From an uncultured Planctomycetia bacterium (GTDB lineage: Bacteria > Omnitrophota > Gorgyraeia > Tantalellales > Tantalellaceae), in the NCBI GenBank assembly GCA_964527765.1, contig CAZGQR010000007.1, forward strand, positions 38,100 through 100,295: a stretch of DNA of 62,196 nucleotides, written 5' to 3'. Below are positions 8,341 to 62,196 of this stretch, piece after piece. The notes below the pieces were generated by a model. That model did not search any database and was not told the DNA's origin. It was given only the letters and a program-made list of their open reading frames with translations. The translations under genes were made by a program, and so were the position numbers. Every line of letters starts with the position of its first letter. The stretch's first letter is position 1.

Positions 8341-8348
8341 CCCGCAAT

Positions 8349-10586: not shown

Positions 10587-10630
10587 TACCCGTAGACAGC
10601 GGATACCTGTAGCCAAAAAGGAGAGCTAAA

Positions 10631-43150: not shown

Positions 43151-43354
43151 ATGGCAACAGGAACAGTAAAATGGTTTAATGACTCAAAAGGTTATGGGTT
43201 CATTACGCCGGATGATGGAAGCAAGGACTGCTTTGTTCACCACAATGCGATCCAGGGCGAAGGCTTCAAATCTTTAAGCGAAGGACAAAAAGTCCAGTTT
43301 GACATCGAAGAGGGCGCCAAAGGTCCTCAGGCTGCAAACGTAGTAAAGATATAA
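43151..43354 (+). CDS. csp: cold-shock protein (CspA family)
   Basis: [35 protein letters not shown]... carries the RNP1/RNP2 motifs. RBS AAAGGAGAAAAAG. Confidence 0.95.
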
Positions 43355-43370
43355 CATAGCCCGCAAAATA

Positions 43371-43404
43371 AGGCCCGGCAAGAGATTGCCGGGCCTTTTC
43401 TTTC
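43371..43404 (+). terminator. rho-independent terminator
   Basis: AGGCCCGGCA (43371-43380) pairs with TGCCGGGCCT (43387-43396), followed by TTTTCTTTC. Confidence 0.8.
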
Positions 43405-46087: not shown

Positions 46088-46178
46088 GAAAACTCCTTGT
46101 CCTTTTGCGTAAAACCCGGTCCTCCCGCGACCTACCTATATAGACAACTTTTCCGCCTGAATTCTTTCAATTTTTTCA

Positions 46179-46290
46179 GGGTGGCACAAAAAGAGCATAA
46201 AACTGGCTGTCTAAGTTGGACGGTTCCAATATTAGCGAGCCCATCCGTCCAAAAATAGCATAAGTGGGCTTGCTGAGGAGGCTTGCTGGA
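46179..46290. repeat. junction motif GGTGGCACAAAAAGAGC plus conserved hairpin module (copy C)
   Basis: TTGGACGG (46216-46223) pairs with CCGTCCAA (46245-46252). AGCGAGCCCA and TGGGCTTGCT form a second complementarity. Homologous to 52223-52345 and 61309-61430. Confidence 0.8.
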
Positions 46291-46365
46291 TATTTGTGAC
46301 GCATAACTCTAATAAATACAACATATTACATCCCGTTAAGAATACAATACTCATCTCACTTTATG

Positions 46366-46394: not shown

Positions 46395-46483
46395 AATTCA
46401 AGCTAGATAAAGGCAAACCTGTGGTGACATGGGGGCGCAAAATTAGGGGTCTAGAACTCAAAGGCATAAGTAATTTTAGACAG

Positions 46484-46521
46484 CCCGATTACCTGGAAAT
46501 GAGGTAATCGGGTTTTGTTTT
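46484..46521 (+). terminator. terminator-like hairpin inside the 5' leader of giant ORF 2 (candidate attenuator)
   Basis: CCCGATTACC (46484-46493) pairs with GGTAATCGGG (46503-46512), then TTTTGTTTT. Enclosed by AGGCATAA (46462-46469) and TTATGCCT (46520-46527). Confidence 0.5.
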
Positions 46522-46608: not shown

Positions 46609-49600
46609 ATGAGTAATTACAAAAATAGGCACAGGAAATGGATAAGGACCATAGCTATGGTCGTAGTGTGTCTGTTTTCCTCTATAAATATCACAACATA
46701 TGCGGATATAGCAGAGAGTACTTTAGCTCCAAAATTGCTTACGTCAAGCATAACTCAAAAAAATGATAGTGGAGTCGACACAAGAAAAGTGCTTTACCGC
46801 AAAGAAGGAGAAATAAATAAACTCTTTGATGCGGTATCAAGGGCGCATGAGATGGGGAAAAAGCCGGAGTGGGAAAAGGTCGGTAAAGAAGCTTCCCGAA
46901 TTAAGAAGAATTGGGTGGCCTGTTATATGGGGCCTTGGTTGGCGGAAATATATGCGGACCGAGTTGTCTCAGAAGACGAAGCCCTACATGCGCGGGAGGA
47001 TTTTCGTTTGAATTTCAAACAGGCCGTTGTCGGGATAAATAGGTCTCGGCAGGAGCCTATTCCAAACATGGATATAAACGATATACTTTTATATGCCGAT
47101 GAGGCGTTTAATACACTCATGAGATCAAGTTCCGATTCCGGATGGAAGCGACAACTCTCGCGGATCGAAATATGGGGATCGGAAAGCGCAGAGCATCTTA
47201 CTCTTTCCCCCGAGGGGGATGGCAGTATGGTTGTTATGGATGATAGTAAGCCTTTCAATGATGAGGAGATGAAGGTAGTTTATGAGGTGCTTGAGGAGAT
47301 TGAAGGATATTTAGAGGAATTAGGCTTTCCTGAGAATCATCCTAAAACCGGCGCGTCAATGAAACCGGATTACGAGCGATATGAGAATCAAAAACTGCCC
47401 GTATATAAAGTGATTTTACGCGCTTATGGCATGGAGGGATGGAATTACGAGTTTGAGAACATACACCAGGATGAGTATCCTCCGCTCATAGGCAAGAACG
47501 GGCAACCGCAACCAACAAGAAGTGAGATCATTAAAGTGATAGAACAAAAGTTCAAGGAAAGAGGCTGCATGGATTTCAGCGTGTCGTTGAACAGGAACAC
47601 GATCATCACGATAGTGAAGAAAGGTGTAACTAAGACCCGGGGCATCAGGAAACTTCTGGAAGAAGGGCCGGTAGTATATTTCGGTGATGAGACAGGGCTT
47701 GGAAATGACCGCGAAGTTTCAGAAATGGCTATAGGAGAAGATGCTCTTTTGACGGTAGGTCTTGATAAAAAGAAAAAAGTCGAGAAAAAAGAAAAGCCTT
47801 TCCCAAAAGGGGTAGCTTACACTGGTGGCTTGACCGAAGGGCTTAAGAAAGTGCTCAAGAGGTTCACCGAGATACTGAAAGAGAACAATACCGTAATGCC
47901 GGACAATAAGGCGATAGCCGAAGCTTTTATACAAGCGGTAAGGGATACGGCGGATTGGGCTTTACTGAAAGAGAAGGGTTATAGGGACGAGGTCGATAAA
48001 AAACTGGGATCTTTTCTGAAGGCGGCAAGCCGTTCAAAGAAGCCGATAAGTTTCGCGTTCGACAGCGACGGCACTCTTACAACCGGCAGAGGAGCTCCCA
48101 TCGATGAGGAAACGGGGAATATCCTGGCGGAGATGATGAGTTTTACCAAGGGTAAGATCGCGGTTTTGACGGGAAAGCTCAGGGAAGATCTTAGGGAATG
48201 CTATATACCTGACGATCTGTGTCTTATCGCGCATAAGAACAGCCTGATAACACGTGAAAGAAAAAGAGCTATCCCGGAAAAGTATCCAGGCACGGATGAA
48301 TTTGATGAATTTAAAAGAAAATATTTCGCTTGCTATACTCTTTTTGCCCATAAAGCAGTAAATGAATATATTAAAAGTCAAATTCCTCAAGAAGGCATAG
48401 AAGCTTTGCAGTCAAGAACTGACAAAGTTATTATTTCCGAGACTGAGCAGCAAGAAATTATTATTGTTGCCATTCCGGACTTATTAAAAAACACTGGTCA
48501 ACTCGCGCATATAGGACTAGGCAGCAGGAATGGCGTGCCCACTGCTTATGTCGATAGCACCTATTTTTACGATGAAGATGTGCTTGCTCATGAAAAAGAC
48601 GAGATTGCAAGTTGGGAGAGGAAAAGAAAAGAACTTGACCTTACATATAAGGAAATGCGGGAATGGATAAAAACAAATCCCGAAGCAAAGAAACTTGCCT
48701 CTGAATTTCATGCCTCTTCATATAGCCTGGAAAGCTCACATTCCCGAATTCAGGAAAAATACCAGAATCTATTGGATCTGGATAACATTTATGCTGCTTA
48801 TCTGGCCTATGGCTTCGATGTTGATGATAATGATGTGAATATCGCAGCCCATAAAAAGAAGAAAAGGGATGAGGCAATTTCTCCAGAGATAATAAAAATG
48901 GTTGTGGGTCAATGCCAGGGGATCGTACAAACGCTTGACATGTCGACCGGTGATAAATGCATAGAACGAGAGCTGAAAAAAATTAATAAGATTTTAAAAG
49001 AACGTCAAAATGACAAAGCGCTTATCTACGCACTGCTTGCAGTGGACATGTATGAAATTAATAAAGTTATCATGGACAATACCGATGACGATTCCTTATT
49101 TTTTTCAAACCCCATCCTTTTTGTGAACGACCACGTGAGAAAATCCGTTAAAGAGTTTGCAAGACAAATTAAAAATGCTGTTGCAAGCTATGAAAGAGAA
49201 AAATATTTTCCCGACAGTGACGTACGGGTTGTTGCCACTTATGCGGGGGGCATTGATAAAGATTTAAGATTCTTAAAGAAGAGCACTGACCAGATTTTTG
49301 AGATATTCCCTGAACTTCGAAGGGTTTTCTTGAATTTGCCAGCCATACTAATAAGGAATTTAAAATGGCCTCTTGCTGCATTTGATTGGGAAGGAGCAAA
49401 GACCATTAAAATATCAAAAGAGTTCCTGGACCTCGCAAAAAAGGATATTTCTATTTTCTACCTTCTGGGAAGTGCCATTGCGCATGAATTAGACCATGCC
49501 AGGTTTGACAGCAGTTATAAATTGGGAGACTTAATCGCATGGTCCGTTGAGTTTGAAAGGGAAGAGAAAAACCTTACTCCGATTACGCCAAATACTCTAA

Positions 49601-50889
49601 ACCCATTTGTATATTTTATGGAAATCTCGGCATGTTTAACAGATGCCAGATATACATTGACCCAAATGGAACGGCTAACGTCTTCCGAGCAAAAGGGTGT
49701 ACGAAAAAAGCTTAAATTACATATATCAAGAAATTTGGAAGGGGTAAAGTGCGCACTAAATGTCCTAAAAAGGCATAAAAAGGAAAAAATATTTACTAAA
49801 AAAGGTGAGCAATTACTTGTGGAGTATACCGAAAAACTGGATCAACTGGAAAAGGCATATGCAGATTCTCTAAAGAAGAAGACACCCACAGCTGTGGCTA
49901 AAAATGCTAAGGCGCGAAAAAAGGACAAAGGCTGTCCGGAGAAGCTCCTTGAGGATATCCGCAACAATGACATTCTACTGAGAAAGGCCCTAAGCGAAGA
50001 AGGCATATCAAGGCAGGAGATACTGGCTATCCGCGACTGGTCCGAGAGGACCGTGGACAGGGAAGTGGAGATCCTAAAGGCACTTGGCATATTTGTTCCT
50101 ATAGAAGAGAAGACCGGACATTACAAATTCAGCGATATGATGAAGGGTCCAAACGAAAATTACACTAAGACCATGATCAATGCAATAAATGACATAAAGT
50201 ACCAAGTTGGCCAAAAAGGCGAAGAAAGGCCGCTTAATCGCTACGATATCCCTAAAGATAAAAGACCTGCGGTAAAAGAGCTCATCAAAATGACTGTATT
50301 ACACCAAGCAAATCTCATGCAAAGGTCAGCTACCCTCGAGAATAAGGTTTTATGGCACATCATTGAACGTGACGTTTTATCTGACTCTCAAAAGAACTCT
50401 TTTGCTCAACAGATAAATACCGCATCAATGAAATCAGGTTCTCCTGAAAGAATATGGATCCTTAAAAGAGAGGAAACAATAAAAGAGGCTATCGCAAAAA
50501 TTAAGGCAATTTGTCCAAACGCTGTCTTCGACGTTGCTTTAAGCAGCCCGGATCATATAGAAAAAATACCGGCCCTGGAAGGGGAAAAAGAGATCAAAAT
50601 GCTTGTTTTTAAGGGGACAGCTGGAGATTTTAGTCAAATAGAGGGCGTAATAGCCGCTTTAAGGGCATTGCATCTCAAGAAAGAACAGGTCATACCGGCT
50701 CTTTTAAGAATATATTCAATTATGGCAGGGGCTCCCTATACCGGAGAGATCCCTTCGGAGGCCACACTGGAGGACGTAAGGGAATTCGCACGCAAGTTTA
50801 TATTTGACCTGCCGCCTGCAACAGAACTGCCTGTCGATGATATCCCGAAGCTTAACGAGAGACTAAAAGAGCTTCTTATAGCAGCTTAA
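46609..50889 (+). CDS. giant protein 2 (1426 aa) with N-terminal signal-anchor, HAD-like motifs and an HExxH motif
   Basis: 4.28-kb ORF. N-terminus NRHRKWIRTIAMVVVCLFSSINITTYADI. FDSDGTLT and GDETGLGNDRE. AIAHELDHARF (49483-49497). Tail ...LKELLIAA. Confidence 0.85.
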   Translation: MSNYKNRHRKWIRTIAMVVVCLFSSINITTYADIAESTLAPKLLTSSITQKNDSGVDTRKVLYRKEGEINKLFDAVSRAHEMGKKPEWEKVGKEASRIKKNWVACYMGPWLAEIYADRVVSEDEALHAREDFRLNFKQAVVGINRSRQEPIPNMDINDILLYADEAFNTLMRSSSDSGWKRQLSRIEIWGSESAEHLTLSPEGDGSMVVMDDSKPFNDEEMKVVYEVLEEIEGYLEELGFPENHPKTGASMKPDYERYENQKLPVYKVILRAYGMEGWNYEFENIHQDEYPPLIGKNGQPQPTRSEIIKVIEQKFKERGCMDFSVSLNRNTIITIVKKGVTKTRGIRKLLEEGPVVYFGDETGLGNDREVSEMAIGEDALLTVGLDKKKKVEKKEKPFPKGVAYTGGLTEGLKKVLKRFTEILKENNTVMPDNKAIAEAFIQAVRDTADWALLKEKGYRDEVDKKLGSFLKAASRSKKPISFAFDSDGTLTTGRGAPIDEETGNILAEMMSFTKGKIAVLTGKLREDLRECYIPDDLCLIAHKNSLITRERKRAIPEKYPGTDEFDEFKRKYFACYTLFAHKAVNEYIKSQIPQEGIEALQSRTDKVIISETEQQEIIIVAIPDLLKNTGQLAHIGLGSRNGVPTAYVDSTYFYDEDVLAHEKDEIASWERKRKELDLTYKEMREWIKTNPEAKKLASEFHASSYSLESSHSRIQEKYQNLLDLDNIYAAYLAYGFDVDDNDVNIAAHKKKKRDEAISPEIIKMVVGQCQGIVQTLDMSTGDKCIERELKKINKILKERQNDKALIYALLAVDMYEINKVIMDNTDDDSLFFSNPILFVNDHVRKSVKEFARQIKNAVASYEREKYFPDSDVRVVATYAGGIDKDLRFLKKSTDQIFEIFPELRRVFLNLPAILIRNLKWPLAAFDWEGAKTIKISKEFLDLAKKDISIFYLLGSAIAHELDHARFDSSYKLGDLIAWSVEFEREEKNLTPITPNTLNPFVYFMEISACLTDARYTLTQMERLTSSEQKGVRKKLKLHISRNLEGVKCALNVLKRHKKEKIFTKKGEQLLVEYTEKLDQLEKAYADSLKKKTPTAVAKNAKARKKDKGCPEKLLEDIRNNDILLRKALSEEGISRQEILAIRDWSERTVDREVEILKALGIFVPIEEKTGHYKFSDMMKGPNENYTKTMINAINDIKYQVGQKGEERPLNRYDIPKDKRPAVKELIKMTVLHQANLMQRSATLENKVLWHIIERDVLSDSQKNSFAQQINTASMKSGSPERIWILKREETIKEAIAKIKAICPNAVFDVALSSPDHIEKIPALEGEKEIKMLVFKGTAGDFSQIEGVIAALRALHLKKEQVIPALLRIYSIMAGAPYTGEIPSEATLEDVREFARKFIFDLPPATELPVDDIPKLNERLKELLIAA

Positions 50890-51554: not shown

Positions 51555-51890
51555 ATGAGGATCTGGGACATCTCGCCGCAAAAATTATGCCGCAACCATC
51601 TCCTGGCGGAACACAGGGAACTCCACGCCATATGGAACATCATAACCCAAAAAAGGAAAGGATACTCAAAACATCCCGAAACGTTAAGGTGGAAAGGGAA
51701 GCTGAAGGCCCTGTATCTCAGGCATGAAAGATTAGTCAAAGAAATGAAGAAAAGGGGCTATAATCATAAAAGCCCTTTATCCAGGAAGCTGGCGACGGGG
51801 AAAGCCGGGCAGGACACATACGTCGATTCACCCGAAACGCAGATCAGGATCCTCAAGAAGAAAAAATGCGAGTGCGGCCGGCAGCTTTAG
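51555..51890 (+). CDS. pyrimidine dimer DNA glycosylase / endonuclease V (T4 DenV family)
   Basis: MRIWDISPQKLCRNHLLAEHRELHAIW...GYSKHPETLRWKGKLKALYLRHERLVKEMKKRGYNHKSPL. Confidence 0.8.
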   Translation: MRIWDISPQKLCRNHLLAEHRELHAIWNIITQKRKGYSKHPETLRWKGKLKALYLRHERLVKEMKKRGYNHKSPLSRKLATGKAGQDTYVDSPETQIRILKKKKCECGRQL

Positions 51891-51928: not shown

Positions 51929-52096
51929 ATGGACGAAAAACAGGCAAGGCTCATAACCGCGCCACTGGTGGGAACCGGGATCATACTTATAATGATGTCC
52001 GCTTTCGATATAGTCCCCGCATGGGACAATGTCCTGATCTTTATCGGGATAGCCTGTTTTATAGTGTCGTGGGTCATAAAAAGAATGGCAAAATAG
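51929..52096 (+). CDS. small two-TM membrane protein (55 aa)
   Basis: RBS AAGGAGAAAAT. Encodes MDEKQARLITAPLVGTGIILIMMSAFDIVPAWDNVLIFIGIACFIVSWVIKRMAK. Confidence 0.4.
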   Translation: MDEKQARLITAPLVGTGIILIMMSAFDIVPAWDNVLIFIGIACFIVSWVIKRMAK

Positions 52097-52097: not shown

Positions 52098-52214
52098 ATG
52101 GACAAGATACGCTACGAACTCGACCCCTACAACCGCCTTATCCTTAATAGGACCGGCAAAAAAGGGCGCCTCACGAAGTTCCGGAGGGTCCTGGACGGCC
52201 GGTTCAGGATATAA
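52098..52214 (+). pseudogene. 5' fragment (38 codons) of the 58839..59852 gene family
   Basis: MDKIRYELDPYNRLILNRTGKKGRLTKFRRVLDGRFRI-stop. About 90 percent nucleotide identity to 58839-58955. Homology ends where the TTAGGGTAACCATAAAAAGAGC junction begins. Confidence 0.75.
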
Positions 52215-52222
52215 TTATTTAG

Positions 52223-52345
52223 GGTAACCATAAAAAGAGCATATAGAGGGCTGTTGAAGTTGGACGGCTCCGATATTAGCAGCCCATCCGTCCAAAAACA
52301 GCATAAGTGGGCTTGCTGAAGAGGGCTGGCTGGGTGTTTGGGGTG
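52223..52345. repeat. junction motif GGTAACCATAAAAAGAGC plus conserved hairpin module (copy E)
   Basis: TTGGACGG (52260-52267) pairs with CCGTCCAA (52288-52295). AGCAGCCCA and TGGGCTTGCT are also complementary. Confidence 0.8.
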
Positions 52346-52437
52346 TTATAGAAAGTTCTGTCATTCCCGCGAAAGCAGGAATCCATAAGCCCGGTTATTG
52401 GTGTAGGTGGTTTTTAAGGCGCATTTTGGTCACCAGT

Positions 52438-52873
52438 TTAATCATGGCGAAATCCTATCCTGCGTTTCGGCTTTTCTTCAACAGGCGGTTCGACTAGCCG
52501 CTGGATCGCTTCAAAGATCACTATAATTTCTTTATCATGGCGATCTACTTTCTCTTGCAGGAATTCAAGTTGCAGTAAAATTTCTTTGTGTTTAATTATA
52601 GTTTCACGCAATTTAACATAAGGGCATAGCGCCCGAATGTTTAAGCGAATTCAACCGGTGACAAATTGTCACCAGTTCGTCCCGTTCTTTTTTATTAAGC
52701 CTGAACATGAATTCCTTTGGAAACCGCTGAATATTACGCTTGACCTGCCGATTCAAATATTTCGTCTCTACTCCGTACAGCTCAGCGATGTCTTTATCTA
52801 TGATGACCTTTTGACTGCGTATCAAGAAAATCCTTTGCTCAACAACTTCTTGTGGAATCAATTCTTTAACCAT
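52438..52873 (-). pseudogene. ORF6N domain gene, copy 4, internal deletion and frameshift
   Basis: The N-terminal 86 codons (52613..52873) stop after ...LVTICHRLNSLKHSGAMPLC. The AFTE...LNS core is absent. The C-terminal ...[26 protein letters not shown] is retained in another frame (52438-52612). Confidence 0.75.
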
Positions 52874-53276
52874 AAAAGCTCCTTTTTTAAATCTTGCCTC
52901 TGCTTATATAGACAACTCTCTCACCGAATTCTTTCAATCTTTTTCAGGTGACCATAAAAAGAGCTTACAGGGAAGGGGGAGGCTTGTGCTGTGAAAAGTC
53001 CACCGGGTTCAGTGCGCAATGGGTTTAGTGAATAAAGTCCTTGAACCTGATTCAAAATAAGGTTGTTAGTTATTGACAGGTGATAAATTTACTTATTTTT
53101 AAATAGTTCGAGCGCGAGGACACGGCTAAAAAGCACATTTTGTATATCTTAACCAAACTTTATTATCTTGTTATATAAATTAAACTTTGCTAAACTAACT
53201 TTGTATAAGCTAACCTTGCTAAATTTTACTCTCCTCATAAAAGCGTTATTTTCTTTCTCAATGAAGGGGTAACATT

Positions 53277-56200
53277 GTGAAAAGAACAAAAAGACTTAAT
53301 TTCTTTAAAATAATATCTATTTTCCTTGTCCTCAGTTTCCCGTTCAATGACGCGGCCTTCGCGATACCGGAACTTTCCAATATGCAAAGTCCGTCAAGCC
53401 CGCTCCAGCCATGGACCTTTACTGATAATTTCCTTGTGAAGCGTGAAATACTCTCGGAACTATATAAAAGATCACGGCTAATATGGATCGCCAAATCGAA
53501 AAGATACCGCGATCTCCTGGAGCAACATAACGCCGGGGCGCTGCTCCTTCCTTCGGGCAGGTATTTGATGGCGCAAGAGACAATGAAGGACGACCTCTCC
53601 CTGATCAGCGCCGTTACCCATGAGGATTATGAGATACTCATGCAGCGCGAACAAAAATCAAAACCTGCCAGATATGAAAAAGTTATGAAAGAAGTCCTTG
53701 GAAATAACCAGATCAGGCGCGCTTATTTTTCGCTGCCCGGATGCGAAAAAGCGAGTGACAACGTGATTTTTAACGATCTGATCGCGAAGGGCTTCGAGCT
53801 TCTGTTCCTTGTTGAAAATTCCCTCGTCGATCCGCGGACAGAACTTTCCCCGGAAGAAAAAACATTTCTTAAGAATATACGACCCGTCCTGGAAGCAAGG
53901 GATAAAAAAGGCGCTTATGAGAATTTCTCTCCGGTCTTTTTTGACGTCACGGAAAGGTTAAAGACCGTAAAAGACGCGCAGGAAGACGCGGATCAAAGAT
54001 TTTATAAAAGCGCTTCTTCAAAGAGGCAAACGCCGGACAACGAACAAGATGCGTCCGACAAACGGTTCAAATCCATCCTGCGCGCTTTAAGGAAAAAAGG
54101 GTTTTATATCGCAGGGGCGGCTGTGGTGGGCGCGTTCCTGGCGCTGGGAAACGCAGCGGCGGAACCGACAAAGACACTGAAAGAACTTCCTTCGAATGAT
54201 GAAAAACTGCGGCTTATTTTTGAAAATGCTCAAGAAGGCAAATATTCCTACGCGACATTTTTTGACGAGCTCATAAAGATCGACGATTTTCGCGTGTTTA
54301 GATATCTCGCGGGGCTCATGGAAAAGCATGAAATGCCGGCCATTCGCGAGCTTGCTGTCGAAACCCTGGCACGGCTTAATGACGTACGCGGGCTCGGGCC
54401 GCTGTTAAGAGCAAAGCTTTACGATAAAGACCCCGCCGTGCGGAAAAAAGCGAAAGAAGTCATTAAAAAGTACGAATATCTGGACTCGCTCAGTGCCCTT
54501 ATAAATGTTCTTATACAGGAAGACGACCCGAACATGCGCGAGGAGGTCCTTGCCGCCCTGGAAAAGCTCGATGACCCGGAGGCAGTTGAAGCGCTTTACA
54601 GGTTAAAAAAATTCCGCTCCGAAGGGACGGGTCTGAGCCGGATGGAGGCGGAGAAGGTGCGTCAAAACGCCGAAAAAACCCTGAAAGCCCTGGAAAAACT
54701 GGATGTACCGCGGATAAAAGAAGCGTTATCGCTGCGTACTCTCCCCGGGGAAGTGAAGCGTGAATGGTGGGAAACAGCCCTTCTGGGGGCCATAGCGCTG
54801 TGCAGTTTGCTTATTTTCTGGAAGGTGTTTATCGGGATATATAGGTACCGCAGGCTGAAAAAACACCTGCGGCGCGCCGAAACCATAGATCAGCTCATTA
54901 AAACGATCAAGACGTACAGGGGCAAGGGAGGAGTGTTCACGGATTCCGCGATAATAGCGAAAGCCCGGGAGATAACGGATGGCCTTGCGGAAAAGGCGAA
55001 AACGCTGCAAGATCTTAGCGAAATCGAAAAACAATTAGAAGCATTAGAAAAGTGGTTTTCGTCAGACCACATATCGACGGTCAAGTCCGGGGAATTACAG
55101 TCCAGAAAGTGGCATCTAGAGCAGGTAAAAGTAACCGAATTGCGCACCGGGATGATCAAGCGTTTGCAGTCCGCCGAAACCATTGACGAGATCATCCGGA
55201 TAATCGAAGAAGACAAAGGGAGCAAAAAAAGTGTATTAACCGCCGAAGGCACAAGTAAAAGCATAACACCGCTTTTAACAACCGCTCTGGGAAAAATCAA
55301 AGATCTGGAAGACTTAATAAAGGTAGAAGAGAAAATAACAAGGATAAAAGGGTATTTTTCCTATGCTTCAAAATCCCTTTTCGCCCGGGATTTATTTCGA
55401 AAAAAAGAAGAAGAGTTCCTGCAAAAGGAGAAAGAGAGCTTTGCTTCAAAGTTGCGTTTGGCGGAAAGTAACGAAAAATTTGAACTGGTCTTAATGGAAA
55501 AACTTGAATCTGTCTGCGGCCACATCGATAAAGAACAGTTTTTCCTGAGAACCGCCATGGATCTCGCTCATACCTACGACAGGCTAAAGAGCGTTTGCGA
55601 GTTCAATCATACCCGGACGGGTTCAAATATCATAGGCGCCGGGGAAATAATTAAAAAGCTTGAATCGCTGGGGATCAAACCGTCCGACAAACAATTAAAA
55701 GCGTTTTTCATCGAACTGGTGTGGAAAGGCGCGGAAACGCGCGTTAAAATATTGCGGCAACTCGCCAAAAAATTCGACGAAGAGCGAAAGGCGGACAAAA
55801 AGCGAAAAGCGGATCGGGGTTTAACGGAATATGGCCGCTGGACCGATTACCTTTTCGGCGAAGACAAAGTCCCAAGAAAAAGCGCTGAAATCGCGAAACA
55901 AATAAAAGAGAACTTGTCCGGCATGGATATACCGCTCTTAGAAACAACCGCGCGCAAAGTAAGCTCTATGTCTACGGAAGAGGATGCCGCGACTCTCATC
56001 GAAATGTTCAATGCCATACACTTTGCCAATAAAATGGACGTGATCTTCAACCAAAACCGTCCGTACGCCAAGAGTTATGAAGAATCGAAGGACGAAAAGG
56101 ACCTTGATTTTGAGAATTATTGCGCTGGCCTGATCGAATCCTACGGCTTAATTTCCTTCAAGAATGAGGCCGGAAAGAAGGCGATGGTTGATTTTCTCGG

Positions 56201-58721
56201 CGGAGTAGCCGGAAACGGCCTTGATTACGCGGTTTATGTCAGGCAGGCGGCCGTTACCGCGCTCAGAAAGATCGGCGGCCCGGATGCGGAAACAGATGTT
56301 GAGAGCGTCATTGAAGATCCGGATATAATGACAAGAGAGGTCAGGGTAGAGAAGTGGCATTCGCAGGACAGGATAAAGCATGCGATCATTGACGGTCTTA
56401 AATTCGTGGCAGGCGAACAGGCCCTGCCCGGAACCGTGAAAGATATAGAGAATAATATAGATTACGTTTTTGACAGGATCCCGGGGCTGGTCGACTTTTT
56501 AAAAAAATACCCCTTGAGGTTATTCCGGATGAGAGACAAGCGGAAGATAGACTCGATCGTGCTCGGTGAGTTCAGAAAGTACTGGTTCAGGATACTCGGG
56601 TACGTATGGTTCTACGGCATAAGCGGCGGGGGCATGTTCGAGGCCTACAGGGAAATAGTGCTTCGACACCAGGATTCGCCGATAGACATGGGCGTGGCTG
56701 TTGAGCTTTTCACCAACAGGCATATTCTGGCAAGCGTACTGTATCATGAATACATGCATTACAAGGGTGAATTGAGCGAAGGCAAAACCCTTTTCAGGCA
56801 GATAAACTTCCTGAGAGAAATAATCGCCGGGGAAGGCCTTTCCGATCCTGCCGGAATGGCGAAAATGGAAAAACAGATCGCGGAGTGTATTACTGCGTTG
56901 GGATTATTGCCTCTTGGCCTGTTTCTCATGTTCCCGCACGATGAAAACTACAGAAAAAACCTGAACAGTTTCATATTATCGGCTTACGGTCCCGACGATA
57001 TGACAGACGCGGACATGCGCAAAGAAGCGGAAAGGATCATACAAAACGTAAAAGATTTCATCAACAGGGCGAACAAGAAAATAGAGATACAGAAACTTAC
57101 TGAACCTAACCTGCAATTCTACAAGCCCCTGACAGAAGAGCAGGAAAGCCAGATCATGACCTTCGTGAGGCTTTCCAAGCAGGTGAAAAACGCTGTCAGC
57201 GAAGCGGACTTCCGAAATATCCAGATAAACGACGAAAAAGCACTGGAATTATGGGAGGAATATCTGAAAAAAGGCGGCGGGTCCGTTTTAAAGTCGGACC
57301 TGATAGGCGACTTTGACTCGATCGTAAGGTGGGGACTTTCATCCGGCGGTATTCTGGACGGTCCCAAAAACCTTTTACGCGGCGACGTGAACGAACTGAC
57401 CGAGACCCATCCCGCGCTTGAAAAAGCCGCGAATGACGGCAGGATGTTCGCCGTGAGAGAGGACCAGGTCAGCAGCCTGCGCGAATCGGACAACGAGGCT
57501 CTGGCGTTGATCGTTACAGGGAACCTTGTCAATCTCAAGCACCCCGAGGGAACAAGAAACAAGATCCTCGAAAAGCTCAAGGACCCGATCTTCAGAAGGA
57601 ACATACTGGAAGGCCTGCGCATGATGAAGGATGCCGCGGGCGACCGCCTGCCTCAAAAGATACCCACCCGTTTATGCATAATCGTCGAAAAAGAAGACCA
57701 GCCAGCTGTAATATTCCGGGACAAAGACAATAATCTCATCGCTCATACCGGCAAAGGCTACAAGACAAACAGCCCCTATCATTCCATCTATGTCGGCTAC
57801 AGCGTGGTGGAATATGCCGCCGGCTCGGACAGGGAAGAGGACTTCAAAAGGATCATCCGCCATGAAATAAAAGATCTCCTGATCGGTCGTCATGATAGCG
57901 AGGACGAAGAGCTGGGAAAAATAGAACAATTTTACGACGATCTTATCTATGAACGATTGAAACATCTGAAACCGGTAGCGGACGCTTTTTATTATCTGGG
58001 AAAAGCGGCAAAAGAAACGGGTCTCAACAATTACACAAGCCGGTTAGGCGGCACTTGCCAGAAATCCTTCAACCGTTCGAACCTTCGGTACTGCATCCCG
58101 ATGGAAGTGTTCAAGAACGCGCCCGACGCTACGCTCGCATTGAAAAGGCTTGACATGCTAAACAATAAAAGAAGGGGGCAGGAGAAGATCGAACTTGAGA
58201 TCATCCTGACCGGCGTTACTGAGCATGACGAGGAATCGCTCGGCCGTTTCAACAGAAATGATATCAAGTGCGTGCTCGGGCTGCCTGACAACCTGAAGAT
58301 ATCCTTTATAAGATCGGAAGAAATGAGGTCGGCGGCAGAACGGACATTCAAAGATCTGAACAACCCATCAGACAGGATAGAAGTGATAAAATCGTTAGCC
58401 CTGCAGGTGAAGCCGCTCGCGGAAAACGAATATATGGCGATTGCTGAGGTCACAGGGAATGCCGATAGCATTGATCTTATAAGAGGCAAAACAGAACCGC
58501 AACTGGCAGACAACCTTTCATTAAGGGTGCTGGTCCGGCCGGAACGCGGAAAAAGCGCATTTTCGCTCGCCGCCGTAATAAACGGCTGGCTGAAAGAGCT
58601 TCACCGGGGCCGGACTTCCACGTTCGATGTTATCCTGCCTGTCATGATCTCTCCGCGTGAGATGATAGACCTTCTCGCTGAAAAAACGGAAAAAGCCTGG
58701 CGAATCTTAGCCTCAGCATAG
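53277..58721 (+). CDS. giant protein 3 (1814 aa) with N-terminal signal-anchor, two internal TM segments, HEAT-like repeats and an HExxH motif
   Basis: GTG start after GAAGGGG. N-terminus KRLNFFKIISIFLVLSFPFNDAAFAIPE. HEAT-like AIRELAVETLARLND...DPAVRKKAKEV...DPNMREEVLAALEKLDDPEAVEAL. VLYHEYMHYKG (56745-56759). Tail ...AWRILASA. Confidence 0.85.
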   Translation: MKRTKRLNFFKIISIFLVLSFPFNDAAFAIPELSNMQSPSSPLQPWTFTDNFLVKREILSELYKRSRLIWIAKSKRYRDLLEQHNAGALLLPSGRYLMAQETMKDDLSLISAVTHEDYEILMQREQKSKPARYEKVMKEVLGNNQIRRAYFSLPGCEKASDNVIFNDLIAKGFELLFLVENSLVDPRTELSPEEKTFLKNIRPVLEARDKKGAYENFSPVFFDVTERLKTVKDAQEDADQRFYKSASSKRQTPDNEQDASDKRFKSILRALRKKGFYIAGAAVVGAFLALGNAAAEPTKTLKELPSNDEKLRLIFENAQEGKYSYATFFDELIKIDDFRVFRYLAGLMEKHEMPAIRELAVETLARLNDVRGLGPLLRAKLYDKDPAVRKKAKEVIKKYEYLDSLSALINVLIQEDDPNMREEVLAALEKLDDPEAVEALYRLKKFRSEGTGLSRMEAEKVRQNAEKTLKALEKLDVPRIKEALSLRTLPGEVKREWWETALLGAIALCSLLIFWKVFIGIYRYRRLKKHLRRAETIDQLIKTIKTYRGKGGVFTDSAIIAKAREITDGLAEKAKTLQDLSEIEKQLEALEKWFSSDHISTVKSGELQSRKWHLEQVKVTELRTGMIKRLQSAETIDEIIRIIEEDKGSKKSVLTAEGTSKSITPLLTTALGKIKDLEDLIKVEEKITRIKGYFSYASKSLFARDLFRKKEEEFLQKEKESFASKLRLAESNEKFELVLMEKLESVCGHIDKEQFFLRTAMDLAHTYDRLKSVCEFNHTRTGSNIIGAGEIIKKLESLGIKPSDKQLKAFFIELVWKGAETRVKILRQLAKKFDEERKADKKRKADRGLTEYGRWTDYLFGEDKVPRKSAEIAKQIKENLSGMDIPLLETTARKVSSMSTEEDAATLIEMFNAIHFANKMDVIFNQNRPYAKSYEESKDEKDLDFENYCAGLIESYGLISFKNEAGKKAMVDFLGGVAGNGLDYAVYVRQAAVTALRKIGGPDAETDVESVIEDPDIMTREVRVEKWHSQDRIKHAIIDGLKFVAGEQALPGTVKDIENNIDYVFDRIPGLVDFLKKYPLRLFRMRDKRKIDSIVLGEFRKYWFRILGYVWFYGISGGGMFEAYREIVLRHQDSPIDMGVAVELFTNRHILASVLYHEYMHYKGELSEGKTLFRQINFLREIIAGEGLSDPAGMAKMEKQIAECITALGLLPLGLFLMFPHDENYRKNLNSFILSAYGPDDMTDADMRKEAERIIQNVKDFINRANKKIEIQKLTEPNLQFYKPLTEEQESQIMTFVRLSKQVKNAVSEADFRNIQINDEKALELWEEYLKKGGGSVLKSDLIGDFDSIVRWGLSSGGILDGPKNLLRGDVNELTETHPALEKAANDGRMFAVREDQVSSLRESDNEALALIVTGNLVNLKHPEGTRNKILEKLKDPIFRRNILEGLRMMKDAAGDRLPQKIPTRLCIIVEKEDQPAVIFRDKDNNLIAHTGKGYKTNSPYHSIYVGYSVVEYAAGSDREEDFKRIIRHEIKDLLIGRHDSEDEELGKIEQFYDDLIYERLKHLKPVADAFYYLGKAAKETGLNNYTSRLGGTCQKSFNRSNLRYCIPMEVFKNAPDATLALKRLDMLNNKRRGQEKIELEIILTGVTEHDEESLGRFNRNDIKCVLGLPDNLKISFIRSEEMRSAAERTFKDLNNPSDRIEVIKSLALQVKPLAENEYMAIAEVTGNADSIDLIRGKTEPQLADNLSLRVLVRPERGKSAFSLAAVINGWLKELHRGRTSTFDVILPVMISPREMIDLLAEKTEKAWRILASA

Positions 58722-58838
58722 ATCCGGATGATCCCCGCAGTTTGAGAAATTATTTAAAGAAAGCTATGGAGCGGGGGAGGAGTGTGGGTGTAAAATAGGG
58801 GTAGGAATTTAATCTTAAAAACGGCATAAATTACCCTC

Positions 58839-59852
58839 ATGGAAAAAATACGCTACGAACTCGACCCCTACAACCGCCTTATCCTCAATAAGGCCGGCAG
58901 GAAAGGGCGCCTTACGAAGTTCCGGAAGGTCCTGGACGGCCGGTTCAGGATCGACAGGAATAACACGCTTTCCTACCATGTAAAGGCCCCTTTATCCGGG
59001 AAAAAGAACATTCCCCATCAGATCAGACTGAAGGGTGAATGGAAGCTTACCGATGACCATGACCTCCGCCTTACCCTGGATAAGGAGGGGAGGGAGACCC
59101 TGGGGGATAAGATCACGCTTAGGGGCGAGATGCTGGAGGCAGGCAGGAATTCGCTCCTCTTCGCCGTCAGCACGAAAACCAGGGAAAATACCCGCCTCAC
59201 ATACGTCCTGGAGCTCGGGGGCTCCTGGAAGGCGGATAAGAATAACCGCCTGACCTTCCACGTAAAGAAGGAAAAGGGCAGGCATGATATCCTCACCTTC
59301 AAGGGCGCCTGGGAGATCAACAAGGACCACCAGATCATATACAACTATGAAAAGGCCGCCCTCATCAGGAAAAAGAAAGAGCTCCATACATTGACATTCA
59401 AGGGACACTGGGATATCAGGGACAAGTGCCGCATATCGTATGTATTAAGCGGGAGGACTGATTCTGCCTTTGATTTTAAGACGAGTGCCGGCGTCTTCAG
59501 GGATAATTATATTAAATACGAATTAGGGATAGGGTTGACTGGCAGAAAAGAGCCGGTAAAGCGGGCCGTTACTCTATTCGGCAGGTGGAAGCTTAAAAAA
59601 GGCACAGGGCTCACCTTTGAAGTGGAATACGGGGCTAAGAAGGTACAGAAAATAGTCTTCGGGGCGGAAGCCAAACTCACGGATAAAGACACGATCCTCT
59701 TCAAGCTCAGAAACGATACAGGCGCCAGGGACATAGGCGCGAGTCTGGAGCTTTCTCATAGAATATTAAAAGGCGACGGCGAAGCTTTCGTGCGTCTCCT
59801 TAGATCAGGCAGGGAATCAGCTATATACGCAGGGGCTGCCTGGAGGTGGTAG
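58839..59852 (+). CDS. beta-repeat hypothetical protein ending in an aromatic OMP-like tail (...YAGAAWRW), no signal peptide
   Basis: 337 aa with repeated LxFxGxWxLxxxxxLxF-type units. Both of its ends are duplicated elsewhere in the window. Confidence 0.75.
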   Translation: MEKIRYELDPYNRLILNKAGRKGRLTKFRKVLDGRFRIDRNNTLSYHVKAPLSGKKNIPHQIRLKGEWKLTDDHDLRLTLDKEGRETLGDKITLRGEMLEAGRNSLLFAVSTKTRENTRLTYVLELGGSWKADKNNRLTFHVKKEKGRHDILTFKGAWEINKDHQIIYNYEKAALIRKKKELHTLTFKGHWDIRDKCRISYVLSGRTDSAFDFKTSAGVFRDNYIKYELGIGLTGRKEPVKRAVTLFGRWKLKKGTGLTFEVEYGAKKVQKIVFGAEAKLTDKDTILFKLRNDTGARDIGASLELSHRILKGDGEAFVRLLRSGRESAIYAGAAWRW

Positions 59853-59981
59853 GGTAACTTTAGGAGGCGGGGGAAATAAATTGGAAAAGTACTTTATCAA
59901 GTGTATAATAAAATAAAGAACGGGTTAGAGTCGATCTTGGGATTATCCCGATAAATTACCACAAAAAGGGGGAAATCTGAT

Positions 59982-61145
59982 ATGAAATACTTAAAGAATT
60001 TAATTATATTTTTATTAATATTGAATGTTGCAACAGCTGCAGAAAGCAAATCGAAATATGCTCCATTTTCAGATAAAGCATATATTAAAGAAAATATTAG
60101 CGAAATCGGGATACTTGTCTCCGGTTTAGACACTCGTACTTTGCAGTACTTACTGACACTATACGACAAGGCATATAAATTAAAAACTAAACTTTATCCC
60201 ACATTACAAGGCGTTTTTTTAGCTATTAGAGACGGGTCTTTTAGAGTTTTTGATGACGGGGTTTCACCTATTCCTAGTTCCAAATTGATTAGTGGTGGTG
60301 GGACTGTATATGCCGGAATAAACAGCGATATTGCAGATGTTATTTCACGCAGTTTAAATGATCGAGGCTATGAATGCACTTATCTAAACCCAAAGGAGTT
60401 CATGAAAGATTATTATAACAAAAATACACTATCTGAAATAATCGATATTGCAAAACAACATATGCCGGAATTGGATGCGATTATATTTGTATTTTATACT
60501 GCATATGATAGTATTTCCCAGGGCAATATGATCCACAAGGGTCTTTTTGTATGTGCAGATTGTGTAATGTTTAGTACAGGTGAAGATAAAAAACGATTAT
60601 ATATAGGACAAGTGACAGCGAGTCCGTATGGTCTTCCTGAAGATCAACAACAGATTTATACAGTTAAAGATGCCCTTGGTTTTAAATCTCAAAGAATGGG
60701 TTTTACTCCGAGCGATGTGTATAAACTATTTCTTTCGGATTTATCACGCGAATTTTCGGATTCTTTTGACAAAACAGAAAAACAAACAAAACAAGTGTTT
60801 GCCGCGAATGACAAAGCAAAAAAACAAGTGTTTGCCGCAGTTAAGAATAAAAAACTCGCTTCTGAATTAGAGAAGTTGGTCAAGTGTGCTGATGACAACA
60901 CCGATAATTTCGAAAGCCTGGATCTGGGCGTAAATACAAGAGGTGGGCAAGAGATCAGAGTAAAAATAAAATCATCTGTATTATTAGAATTACCCGAACT
61001 TATGAAAAAATTGGACATTAAAGAAGACTCTTATGCGATGGAACAAATACATAGAAGAGAGTATGTTAAATTTATTGTGGACGTTTCCAGTGGAAAGTAT
61101 TCTTTTGATTACTCTTTGAGAAGCAGCAGTTTCGGAAGGTTCTAG
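59982..61145 (+). CDS. secreted hypothetical protein on a markedly AT-rich cassette
   Basis: RBS AAAGGGGGAAA. Signal peptide MKYLKNLIIFLLILNVATAAES. Composition is visibly more AT-rich than its surroundings. Confidence 0.7.
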   Translation: MKYLKNLIIFLLILNVATAAESKSKYAPFSDKAYIKENISEIGILVSGLDTRTLQYLLTLYDKAYKLKTKLYPTLQGVFLAIRDGSFRVFDDGVSPIPSSKLISGGGTVYAGINSDIADVISRSLNDRGYECTYLNPKEFMKDYYNKNTLSEIIDIAKQHMPELDAIIFVFYTAYDSISQGNMIHKGLFVCADCVMFSTGEDKKRLYIGQVTASPYGLPEDQQQIYTVKDALGFKSQRMGFTPSDVYKLFLSDLSREFSDSFDKTEKQTKQVFAANDKAKKQVFAAVKNKKLASELEKLVKCADDNTDNFESLDLGVNTRGGQEIRVKIKSSVLLELPELMKKLDIKEDSYAMEQIHRREYVKFIVDVSSGKYSFDYSLRSSSFGRF

Positions 61146-61160
61146 CGCCAATTTCATCTC

Positions 61161-61232
61161 GAGGCCTTCGTGCGCCTCCTTAGATCGGGCAGGGAATCAG
61201 CTGTCTACGCGGGGGCTGCCTGGAGGTGGTAG
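61161..61232 (+). repeat. direct repeat of the last 72 bp of gene 58839..59852 (copy 2)
   Basis: Encodes EAFVRLLRSGRESAVYAGAAWRW-stop, versus 59781-59852. In frame with the TAG stop of 59982..61145. Confidence 0.85.
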
Positions 61233-61308
61233 GGCTACAGGGACTGTCCCCACCCAAACCATATGCATCCTGGGGGACTGTCCCTTAAGAGGGTAGAGTT
61301 TGTTTTAG

Positions 61309-61430
61309 GGTAACCATAAAAAGAGCTTATAGGTGGCTGTAAAGTTGGACGGCTCCGGGTCTAGCAGCTGATCCGTCCAAAAACAGCATTAGTGGGCTTG
61401 CTCAAGGGGGCTAGCGGGGTTTTTGGGGGG
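61309..61430. repeat. junction motif GGTAACCATAAAAAGAGC plus conserved hairpin module (copy G)
   Basis: TTGGACGG (61345-61352) pairs with CCGTCCAA (61373-61380). Confidence 0.8.
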
Positions 61431-61447
61431 GCATTTTGGTCACCAGC

Positions 61448-61954
61448 TTAATCATGGTGGAATCCTATCCTACGCTTCGGTTTCTCTGGTGGTGATTCCA
61501 TTAATTTTTTTATGGCTTTAAAAACGATTTGAAACTGGCCGTCATATTTCTTTTCCATGGCTTCGATTTTTCGTCTAAGGCTTTCATGCGTAAAACCTAT
61601 TCTTCTCAAGTTCACAAAAACTCGCATGATTTGAATATTCACCTCAACTGCTCTCTCACTGTTAAGGACACTTGAAAGCATAGCGATGCCCTGTTCAGTA
61701 AAAGCGTATGGCACGTATCTTCTGCCGCCCCAACTTGAGGTCGCAAATTGCGATTTCAAGTTCGTAACTTCTTTCCTGGTAAGGGGAAACATAAAATCTT
61801 CGGGAAATCGTTTTAAATTCCTTTTAACCTGTTCATTTAAGCGACTGGTAGGAACACCATAAAGTTCCGCCAGGTCTTTATCCAGCATCACATTTCTGCC
61901 CCTTACCTGGTAAATCTTATTTTTCACGTTATTTGCTGAAATAATTTCCTTCAC
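61448..61954 (-). CDS. ORF6N domain DNA-binding protein, copy 5
   Basis: GTG start after GGGAGGA. ...[35 protein letters not shown]...[34 protein letters not shown]...[11 protein letters not shown]. Confidence 0.85.
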
Positions 61955-62078
61955 CTGGATCCTCCCTTAGATCTAAACACACATTGTATTCACTGCCTTT
62001 ACTTATACAGACACCGTTTTTCCAAAAATTCTTTCAAAATTTTTTCTATTTTCTTATAATATAGAAAGGGTAGGGGGC

Positions 62079-62136
62079 CCTCCTTAGATCGGGCGAGGAA
62101 TCGGCTGTCTATGCAGGGGCTGCCTGGAGGTGGTAG
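62079..62136 (+). repeat. direct repeat of the last 58 bp of gene 58839..59852 (copy 3)
   Basis: CCTCCTTAGATCGGGCGAGGAATCGGCTGTCTATGCAGGGGCTGCCTGGAGGTGGTAG. Confidence 0.8.
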
Positions 62137-62196
62137 AATGCTTGAACCGGTTTCATCGAACGAAGTTCTGGAAACCGGTTTAGAACATAATATTTA

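Follow-up and report, generated by a model that had tools for sequence, protein, structure and literature searches.

In Streptococcus thermophilus, arrays of ICEs of the ICESt1/ICESt3 type and of integrase-less CIMEs accrete in tandem at the 3′ end of the fda gene. Little is understood of the giant genes and accessory islands of the uncultured Omnitrophota. The window, which is the whole 62,196-nt stretch of Omnitrophota DNA analysed here, holds an island that resembles the fda arrays in its serial cargo blocks, after each of which comes a copy of the target gene's 3′ end. In both, an intact version of the gene heads the array and some blocks lack their own recombinase. Unlike the fda arrays, the island has no nearby integrase, its repeats are of unequal length and end with the stop codon, and the start of the gene is duplicated too, as a 5′ fragment. 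Its conserved boundary sequence is external to the gene and belongs to the motif (M) and hairpin module of the ORF6N unit.

Gene X and its duplicated ends

The intact gene, here called X, is located at 58839..59852 on the + strand and encodes an orphan protein of 337 aa, which is predicted to be all-beta and is conserved in Omnitrophota. No match to its product was found in Pfam, NCBIfam, PHROG or PDB searches. Full-length X is present as one copy per genome in 30 of 41 relatives and absent from the others, and its nearest homologue in the genome and metagenome collections has 73% protein identity. Beyond X and the fragments described below, the 1.56-Mb MAG contains no further X-like DNA.

A 5′ fragment, X_L (52098..52210, + strand), carries codons 1–37 and slightly more, followed by a TAA stop at 52212–52214, giving a 38-codon ORF. 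Its 113 nt differ from 58839–58951 at 9 positions (92.0% identity), and the homology begins exactly at the ATG. A 38-nt core (52107..52144, + strand; corresponding to 58848–58885) is the same in both 5′ copies and encodes the most conserved N-terminal residues. The amino acid states TGKK and KFRR of X_L are found in functional orthologues as well. The sequence-only reading had reported this 5′ repeat and its terminal stop correctly, and had placed the break of homology exactly at a junction motif, TTAGGGTAACC. The break is indeed near that junction, but homology to X ends at 52210 and not at 52214. The 9 nt past 52210 (ATAATTATT) are part of a variant motif module rather than of X, because the module copy just past the window end begins ATAATATTTAGGG.

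Two further fragments derive from the 3′ end, as had been described. The fragment tail2 (61160..61232, + strand) contains the last 24 X codons and the stop, and over 73 nt it is 90.4% identical to the end of the intact gene (tail1, 59780–59852); six of the seven differences fall at third codon positions (P = 0.007). The shortest fragment, tail3 (62080..62136, + strand), contains the last 18 codons and the stop and lies directly after the promoter of ORF6N copy 5. It is 87.7% identical to 59796–59852 of tail1 over 57 nt, and 91.2% identical to tail2. Substitutions in the tails are mostly synonymous, and the L-type and tail variant residues occur in functional orthologues. The repeats contain long identical runs of 38, 21 and 24 nt. 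Folding of the repeated ends was not better than that of shuffled sequences (z between −1.5 and +0.7).

Every repeat has the X start or stop codon exactly as one edge and a breakpoint as the other: the 5′ repeat opens at the ATG, and the 3′ repeats finish at the stop codon plus 3–8 nt. One gene-edge boundary and one breakpoint are what truncated gene copies would show. The duplicated ends are confirmed as genuine and as flanking foreign-looking cargo, and they must derive from recombination in which two or more copies or alleles of X took part.

ORF6N units, their boundary module and cargo

Read on the + strand, a unit opens with motif M and the hairpin module; a minus-strand ORF6N gene and then its promoter follow, and transcription of the cargo genes leads away from that promoter. 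A pyrimidine-dimer DNA glycosylase gene of the DenV type (51555..51890, + strand; Pfam Pyr_excise, E = 3e-29) is cargo located after ORF6N copy 3. A 55-aa hydrophobic ORF (51929..52096, + strand), annotated as a gene in public assemblies, lies directly upstream of X_L. Between the two 5′ copies of X we find the contents that the sequence-only reading had listed: the junction with motif M2 (TTTAGGGTAACCATAAAAAGAGC) and hairpin module (52211..52343, + strand), a broken ORF6N gene and a giant ORF. This ORF6N copy 4 (52438..52873, minus strand) is split into ORFs of 57 and 86 aa, the latter matching Pfam ORF6N, and by alignment to unit 5 it has an internal deletion. It is followed by an ORF6N promoter region with motif M3 (GGTGACCATAAAAAGAGC) (52902..52964, + strand; repeat families D3, D5, D8 and D9) and by giant ORF 3 (53277..58721, + strand), which encodes 1814 aa with HEAT repeats and a head and tail common to other giant proteins.

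The 3′ copies bracket an AT-rich gene and an ORF6N unit, also as claimed. The gene, gene2 (59982..61145, + strand; 35% GC), encodes 387 aa with a signal peptide, and over the C-terminal 100 aa the product matches the tail domain found in giant proteins. ORF6N unit 5 comprises motif M4 and its hairpin module (61304..61428, + strand), ORF6N copy 5 (61448..61954, minus strand; 168 aa; Pfam ORF6N, E = 6e-37), whose best match is to PHROG anti-repressor families, and a promoter region (61978..62043, + strand; repeat families D5 and D13). Past tail3 lies a hairpin-type repeat (62141..62190, + strand; CTTGAACCGG..TTCATCGAACGAAGTTC..), and the next motif and hairpin module starts in the last 6 nt of the window (62191–62196) and carries on in longer contigs.

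All four X-derived pieces are located 0–70 nt upstream of an M + hairpin module. X_L precedes M2, intact X overlaps half of a motif M, tail2 lies 70 nt before M4, and tail3 lies 54 nt before M5, as read in the longer contigs L046 and L047. The module also occurs without any X nearby, namely after the promoters of ORF6N-2 and ORF6N-6 and on both sides of a PIN cassette. Because it is present where X is absent, M + hairpin belongs to the unit and not to X. The TTAGGGTAACC junction, whose core had been suggested as a possible crossover point, is therefore the boundary or regulatory module of the repeated ORF6N unit and not an attachment site in X. That X pieces always stand before a module which itself can do without X argues for their being relics left at unit boundaries. 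Motif M contains the palindrome GGTNACC.

The sequence TAGGGTAAC (59850..59858, + strand) is the X stop codon overlapping the left half of motif M. This exact 9-mer occurs three times in the window, the other two being the junction motifs M2 and M4, so the match noticed in the sequence-only reading holds. It is very improbable that chance placed it behind the stop codon; the half-motif is the remnant of a unit boundary that the gene2 segment has cut. Units 4 and 5 share 85–92% identity in their M + hairpin modules, like the X fragments, but only 45–60% in their ORF6N bodies. Therefore the boundary segments were copied or exchanged later than the genes inside the units, and this higher identity of the modules also speaks for relics.

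In the relative G013, an ORF6N gene lies 75 nt upstream of X and points away from it. Its closest copy in the window is ORF6N-5 (69%), after which only the last 57 nt of X come here, whereas in G013 the whole gene stands beside ORF6N. An ORF6N-5-like gene next to X likewise favours the relic reading.

The order of the pieces permits another explanation, in which X_L and tail2 are the two ends of one disrupted X. The middle of that gene (nt 114–941) would have been replaced by an 8.95-kb segment containing M2 + hairpin, ORF6N-4, giant ORF 3, a second, intact and functional X, and gene2, with tail3 as a separate relic. Disruption would be tolerated because the insert carries an intact X. The 5′ end does lie left of the insert and the 3′ end right of it in the fitting orientation; divergence from intact X is similar for both (8.0% for X_L and 9.6% for tail2); and the L-type residues and the Val of tail2 match the closest relative, G021, just as the R-type residues and the Ile of tail1 match G014. 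This allele linkage rests on very few characters, however, both junctions would be illegitimate and without an identified mechanism, and the half-motif after intact X and the third tail need more events. We regard such a single insertion as quite improbable.

The modules could also be seen as more than boundaries. The ORF6N unit with M + hairpin might be the docking platform of an undescribed Omnitrophota cassette-capture system, in which a putative recombinase of an as yet unrecognised kind, or the ORF6N protein with host enzymes, would insert cargo at the module. Such cargo would include giant-protein, toxin-antitoxin and restriction-modification genes, and the X pieces would represent flanking sequence that came with the cassettes when these were first excised from an X-to-M junction. 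We consider this a rather doubtful possibility.

Assembly support, strain variation and recombinases

The arrangement in the window was found in at least 10 contigs of 50–200 kb from JGI assemblies and from ENA assemblies (k=141), with 0–1 SNP in 11.7 kb, and four short contigs lead from the small gene upstream straight across the 5′ fragment to the motif. Misjoining of strain variants during metagenome assembly could have been suspected, since the window's contig stops at a strain branch point and Logan graphs built at k=31 are interrupted at the 38-nt core. Each junction is nevertheless covered by contigs from several assemblers and samples, among them k=141 contigs longer than 100 kb and short ones that span the core. 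An assembly artefact is thus hardly credible as the source of the fragments.

Contigs L046 and L047 diverge precisely at the window end. Past that point the island varies between strains and encodes a PIN-domain protein, a HigB-like toxin and a type I restriction-modification system. Direct repeats of M + hairpin, 118 nt long and 91% identical, lie on either side of the 1.7-kb PIN cassette. Strain variation in the island falls at the modules, which again fits relics at unit boundaries.

One Logan k=31 contig shows an empty-site-like join in which X is apparently uninterrupted. The higher-k assemblies of evidently the same sample contain both occupied junctions, and in Logan contigs the 38-nt core stands as a unitig of its own, 38 nt long, with roughly double the depth. 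The occupied form is present in all 20 contigs with the upstream 55-aa gene except the Logan contig, whose hybrid X protein was found on no other contig. The join is almost certainly an artefact of a k=31 graph at low coverage. The case is a caution that such contigs can imitate an empty site. Neither the uninterrupted arrangement nor the excised circle that the sequence-only reading had suggested looking for could be demonstrated; the circle junction has no unique 31-mer.

Pfam searches of the window's ORFs revealed no integrase or transposase domain, and no recombinase gene was found in the 10 kb past the window end. The 93.6%-complete MAG yielded two Phage_integrase matches (Xer-like tyrosine recombinases, both ∼300 aa, on contigs C1 and C5, apart from the contig of the window) and no Resolvase match for serine recombinases; an IntI-type integrase was found in neither the window nor the MAG. 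Within ∼10 kb of X, duplicates of X ends were present in none of 21 related loci, which lends no support to the idea of X as an insertion hotspot. The lack of an integrase or transposase in the window and of X-end duplicates in related loci is in keeping with relics.

These results bear on successive insertion of integrase-driven elements at att sites in X, with later loss of the integrases. Copies of the 3′ end do separate tandem cargo blocks, and a preprint describes ORF6N/KilA-N pairs beside a tyrosine integrase in the integrative module of an Omnitrophota mobile element. Yet two different targets, the 5′ and the 3′ end of one gene, would be needed, the repeats end at gene boundaries, differ in length and have no significant structure, no integrase lies in or near the island, and the 21 related loci show no use of X as a target. 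Site-specific accretion therefore appears very unlikely. The proposed integration into X thus finds partial support: its site-specific form is left without a recombinase in the window, and its Campbell-type form is a serious though less probable rival of the leading explanation given below.

Origin of the X fragments and comparison with known systems

In the Campbell-type form, DNA from ∼90%-identical relatives would be imported by homology, entering either in circular form or as linear pieces with a single anchor of homology. Cargo and a piece of X would recombine with the resident gene by a RecA-type crossover, and a diverged partial X copy would be left on one side of each cargo block. Direct repeats of X segments do flank the inserts beside one intact copy; they are 57–113 nt long and 88–92% identical with long identical runs, the tail differences are mostly synonymous with variant residues matching functional orthologues, the cargo has a foreign-looking composition (as in gene2), direct repeats comparable in length and identity also border the PIN cassette of this island, and no recombinase is necessary. 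At least three separate events would however be required, all with short pieces of one 1-kb gene. No unoccupied or hybrid-repeat strain was found among the 20 upstream-gene contigs apart from the artefact, no circle was found, and no donor allele is present in the genome or metagenome collections, whose closest homologue is the distant one mentioned above. The module adjacency of every fragment would also be left unexplained. We consider this import unlikely, though it deserves serious attention.

Our leading explanation, which we hold with about even confidence, is that the X fragments derive from additional copies of X, whole or partial, and are relics at the unit boundaries of a hypervariable ORF6N array. 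They resemble scars left by the reshuffling of a variable island built from repeats rather than footprints of dedicated insertion elements. The anatomy of the locus, its recurrence across contigs, the lack of recombinases and the strain differences at the modules are observed directly; the order and kind of the events we infer as follows. The native position of X would be directly before the M + hairpin module of the next unit. The array would have grown by segmental duplication and by recombination with diverged copies, ORF6N units and cargo being duplicated or imported, and in the process either the part of X next to the module would have been copied with it or complete copies of X would have been duplicated. 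Every copy but one would then have been truncated: the left copy by a deletion from codon 38 to the module, another by a gene2 segment that replaced one unit and most of that X copy and cut inside M after TAGGGTAAC, and the copy beside ORF6N-5 by loss of all but 57 nt. A dedicated integrase would play no part.

Several complete X copies in one ancestor are an extra assumption of the relic reading, because all 30 X-bearing relatives are single-copy. The third-position bias and the residues shared with functional orthologues fit fragments imported from diverged functional alleles at least as well as decay in place, and no simple tandem duplication produces the 5′ fragment. The direct copies of the motif on both sides of cargo (M1/M2 and M3/M4) could be a sign of some site-directed process, and the ancestral or intermediate arrangement was found in no genome or metagenome searched.

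The duplicated gene ends are not a new mechanism. The locus shows how such an island is built, from repeated ORF6N regulator units with a conserved boundary module, between which giant-gene, DNA-repair and defence cargo is slotted, while relics of the neighbouring core gene X mark earlier rearrangements. The fragments serve as dated markers (8–12% divergence) for ordering events and give exact coordinates for asking whether the blocks still move.

Besides fda, three kinds of system invite comparison. In Campbell-type integration, or deletion between direct repeats, gene-homologous direct repeats likewise flank an insert and one gene copy is complete, but the repeats here are only 57–113 nt long with 88–92% identity, and neither an empty site nor a circle was shown. 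Integron gene-cassette arrays resemble the island in that varied cargo is parted by an imperfectly conserved hairpin module and strains differ by whole cassettes. Unlike integrons, the island has no IntI-type integrase, its modules are tied to a divergently transcribed ORF6N gene and measure ∼125–200 nt, its cargo ranges from 0.8 to more than 8 kb, and its insertion points are not uniform, being located at M in some cases and behind the hairpin in others. Mosaic islands or defence hotspots next to core genes, with their pseudogene relics and deletion scars, share with this locus the truncated copies of a flanking gene amid cargo of foreign composition, and a strain-variable content including toxin-antitoxin and restriction-modification genes. 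The present island differs from these in being built of repeated ORF6N genes with a conserved promoter, motif and hairpin, and in having genes for Omnitrophota giant proteins among its cargo.

Gene X and its partial copies

Gene X (58839-59852) encodes a protein of 337 aa and lies in the final 62 kb of contig C7 of the MAG (1.56 Mb in 19 contigs). A function for X was sought in databases, with no match in Pfam, NCBIfam, PHROGs or the PDB sequences, and the AlphaFold2 model from 10 homologues, predicted as all-beta, was unreliable (pLDDT 36). X was present in 30 of 41 related genomes, as a single copy each time, and all relatives bearing it are labelled Candidatus Omnitrophota.

As claimed by the sequence-only reading, both ends of X are duplicated. 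The first 113 nt of the gene recurred at 52098-52210 with 92.0% identity (9 differences), including an identical 38-nt core at 52107-52144. The start of the left type is marked by ATGGACAAG, and the continuation of the intact type by ..CCTCAATAAGG. The last 73 nt of X recurred at 61160-61232 (tail2, 90.4% identity) and the last 57 nt at 62080-62136 (tail3, 87.7%). In every repeat one edge was the start or stop codon of the gene and the other a breakpoint. Apart from these repeats and the intact gene, no X-like DNA was found in the MAG. The two 5′ copies enclose 6.6 kb containing a motif and hairpin module, a broken ORF6N gene and an 1814-aa giant ORF (giant3); the 3′ copies bracket gene2 (59982-61145, 35% GC) and an ORF6N unit. 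Folding of the repeated ends was no better than that of shuffled sequences, and an attC-like or other structure at these sites was rejected.

The 3′ end of intact X and tail2 differed at 7 positions, of which 6 were third codon positions (P = 0.007). Five of the 9 differences between the 5′ copies were at third positions, and the differing codons comprised three synonymous changes and five conservative replacements. The variant residues (TGKK..KFRR versus KAGRK..KFRK, and Val versus Ile in the tail) were all present in functional orthologues. From this pattern of codon positions and residues, either the fragments were for a time parts of functional genes, or the copy compared was kept under selection.

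Continuity of the arrangement in metagenome assemblies

The arrangement of X fragments is not an assembly error. Contigs from JGI and ENA assemblies (MEGAHIT, k=141) were retrieved by exact look-up of the encoded proteins. At least 10 contigs of 50-200 kb had the same arrangement, with 0-1 SNP across 11.7 kb, and four short contigs ran without interruption from ORF6N-3 or DenV through a 55-aa gene and the 5′ fragment to the motif. The sole break in the Logan k=31 contigs was the 38-nt core, a separate unitig at ∼2x depth. An artefact, to which such a break might point, has a negligible probability given this continuity.

An uninterrupted arrangement, the state expected before insertion into X, appeared once in the related data, in Logan contig SRR6963591_2238354 (locus L057, run X7, 1624 nt). 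Here the 55-aa gene was joined to a full-length X whose start was of the left (fragment) type and whose body was of the intact type. We initially read this join as a 6741-bp presence/absence polymorphism; the junction words were missing from runs X6 and X7, a result resting on the same clipped Logan contigs. It has since been dropped as evidence. Contig ends at 50855 and 56510 were common to JGI sample 3300017971, ENA ERZ27256798 and the Logan contigs of X6 and X7, so the JGI and ENA assemblies evidently derive from the sample of these runs. In the same-sample assemblies the 5′ fragment was joined to the motif (L041, L042) and giant3 was joined to X with the gene's own start (L061, L062), which overturned the join. 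Every segment was equimolar at ∼5x in X6 and X7, and the hybrid X protein occurred on no contig of the collection besides L057. The join is evidently a graph effect in the same sample: at low coverage short dead-end branches are clipped, and because no 31-nt word spans the 38-nt core, the k=31 graph connects the two edges left over. Thus no empty site, hybrid repeat or circle was demonstrated in the Logan, JGI or ENA contigs. Alternatively, a single insertion of 8.95 kb could have entered the resident X and brought a second X with it, in which case the 5′ fragment and tail2 would be what remains at either end of the disrupted gene; we consider this unlikely.

The 6.6-kb block had an excess depth of 1.2-1.45x, which was rejected as a circle signal because a minor haplotype shares ORF6N-4 and the head of giant3 with it. 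In this haplotype (12x versus 25-35x in run X2), an ORF6N promoter and motif run straight into the hairpin, ORF6N-4 and the head of giant3, before it branches off at 54406. Shared sequence in the tails of giant2 and of giant3 was considered as a reason for the contig breaks and rejected, as the two tails showed no homology.

ORF6N units, boundary modules and cargo

The five ORF6N genes of this genome all lie on the minus strand within one 19-kb stretch. Every one of them is accompanied by a conserved promoter region, after which comes motif M (GGTRACCATAAAAAGAGC; short form GGTNACC..AAAAAGAGC); M occurred 5 times against 0.01 expected. Within the window, M with an 87-nt hairpin was present at 46174-46300, 52218-52343 and 61304-61428, with another copy just beyond the end of the window. 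At ORF6N-2 and ORF6N-6 it directly followed the ORF6N promoter with no X nearby, and it was also found ahead of cargo and at both sides of a PIN cassette. These varied settings indicate that the module belongs to the repeated unit, probably as its boundary or regulatory element, and is not a site within X; the proposal that the motif marks a crossover point in X was accordingly not supported. The 9 nt that separate X homology from the motif (ATAATTATT) reappear as ATAATATT ahead of the next module and are thus part of the module.

All four X-derived pieces lie immediately upstream of a module of the M and hairpin type. The 5′ fragment adjoins M2. Intact X runs into the left half of M, TAGGGTAAC, with which its stop codon overlaps; this exact 9-mer has only 3 occurrences in the window, and the gene2 segment starts immediately behind it. 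The distance to the module is 70 nt for tail2 (M4) and 54 nt for tail3 (M5). In one relative (G013) all four ORF6N copies are clustered around X, and the copy closest to ORF6N-5 (69%) lies 75 nt upstream of X, facing away; behind ORF6N-5 itself, in the present genome, no more than the last 57 nt of X remain. The modules of units 4 and 5 were 85-92% identical, similar to the X fragments, whereas their ORF6N bodies were 45-60% identical. By this comparison, the boundary segments underwent copying or exchange more recently than the genes within the units.

Other repeats were seen near these sites. A hairpin repeat, CTTGAACCGGnTTCATCGAACGAAGTTC, lies once in the window (62141-62190, between tail3 and M5) and in six copies at the end of contig C2 (C2:208513-209058), four of them in tandem with a 38-nt period, surrounding a small excisionase/MerR-like HTH gene. 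Unit 4 contains an inserted REP-like hairpin, GTCATTCCCGCGAAAGCAGGAATCC (52361-52385), which draws 80-380x depth from metagenome contigs; G013 has a copy in frame inside the 3′ end of X (L016, 10515-10545), making the protein ∼10 residues longer.

Two 100-kb contigs, L046 (ENA k141_53008) and L047 (k141_181043), cover 6-10 kb beyond window position 62196. Both are identical to the window through its last base and then diverge within M5, which accounts for the end of the MAG contig at this point. An additional 1.7 kb in L047 contains a flavodoxin-like gene, an 80-aa ORF and a PIN-domain gene, between 118-nt direct repeats of M and hairpin (91% identical). Beyond ORF6N-6, the cargo of L047 consists of a HigB-like toxin and an HTH/M78 peptidase gene, and that of L046 of a 288-aa ORF, an HTH gene and type I restriction-modification genes (hsdM-hsdS-hsdR).

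The C-terminal domain of gene2 (residues 286-384 of 387) aligned with the very ends of giant proteins: its last 100 residues were 40-47% identical to the extreme C-termini of proteins of 1000-4100 aa from its own genome (C8:4368-4661) and five relatives. By this match, gene2 looks like a small or collapsed member, or a remnant, of the giant-protein cargo class. An in-frame fusion of gene2 to tail2 was rejected, although the frame is open across the TAG, because the alignment makes the gene's own stop its natural end. The closest relative, G021, whose X is 73% identical, also has a giant ORF next to the gene: on contig L013 this ORF (2-9838, >3278 aa, not related to giant3) stops 60 nt short of X (9899-10912). 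A giant gene directly upstream of X thus recurs in two genera.

Elsewhere in the window, a unit of ∼282-297 nt is repeated in tandem at least 8 times within giant ORF 1 (3153 aa), at 28700-30900, the copies being 60-83% identical. A c-di-GMP-I-GGC riboswitch match (46403-46497, 59.3 bits, gathering score 59) lies between a motif and hairpin module and giant ORF 2 (46609-50889); if real, the giant gene would be under c-di-GMP control. Public assemblies annotate a 90-aa cold-shock-domain gene that is overlapped by a borderline Rfam match to the cspA thermoregulator (42912-43400, 79.9 bits, gathering score 78). A GT87-family glycosyltransferase gene (3895-5208, minus strand) lies between 83-nt direct repeats at 3808-3890 and 5220-5302, which are 81% identical and have GGACCTGTCCC-type palindromes.

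Origin of the fragments and known systems

We give about an even chance to the reading that X natively abuts a unit boundary and that extra whole or partial copies were produced, all but one of which were truncated. In this scenario the island would have gained units and cargo through segmental duplication, and also through recombination with diverged copies, at the boundary module or close to it, generating the X copies in the process. The truncations, in no implied order, would be a deletion from X codon 38 to M2, replacement of half of M, a unit and X nt 1-941 by the gene2 segment, and a deletion of X nt 1-957 beside ORF6N-5. No ancestral form of the locus was found, nor a conserved neighbourhood of X to define one, the context differing in nearly every relative. 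Homology-driven, Campbell-type import from relatives ∼90% identical is a serious but less likely rival. It would agree with the identities of the repeats; scans of genomes and metagenomes for donor alleles or closer relatives of X gave nothing above 73% protein identity. Integration into X, as first proposed, is partly supported as a class of event, recombination, but not as a mechanism.

Nor did X behave as an insertion hotspot: its neighbours vary, and none of 21 related X loci had a duplicate of an X end. In one relative, whose X is 69% identical, two near-identical metagenome contigs are set apart by a block of 4.3 kb (L026 9375-13672 versus L027 11863-12010). The start of this block, 850 bp downstream of X, coincides exactly with the 3′ end of a tRNA-Ser, and the block holds four unknown ORFs and an ORF6N gene, with no integrase.

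No integrase, resolvase or transposase domain was found in the ORFs of the window, and no recombinase in the 10 kb beyond it. The MAG (completeness 93.6%) encodes two ∼300-aa tyrosine recombinases, both on other contigs and, judged by size and score, Xer-like; it has no serine recombinase.

The overall picture of the island is similar to tandem accretion of integrative elements at a gene's 3′ end and, more loosely, to integron arrays. Both are defined by features that this island lacks, namely a recombinase, a shared att site and reuse of the target, and integrase-driven accretion is accordingly very improbable. A preprint describes paired KilA-N/ORF6N regulators in the integrative module of an Omnitrophota mobile element, a report that would fit a mobile-element ancestry of the ORF6N units. 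The island is best filed as a mosaic accessory or defence island with pseudogene relics of a flanking gene, and its unusual point is the repeated ORF6N unit as a building block.
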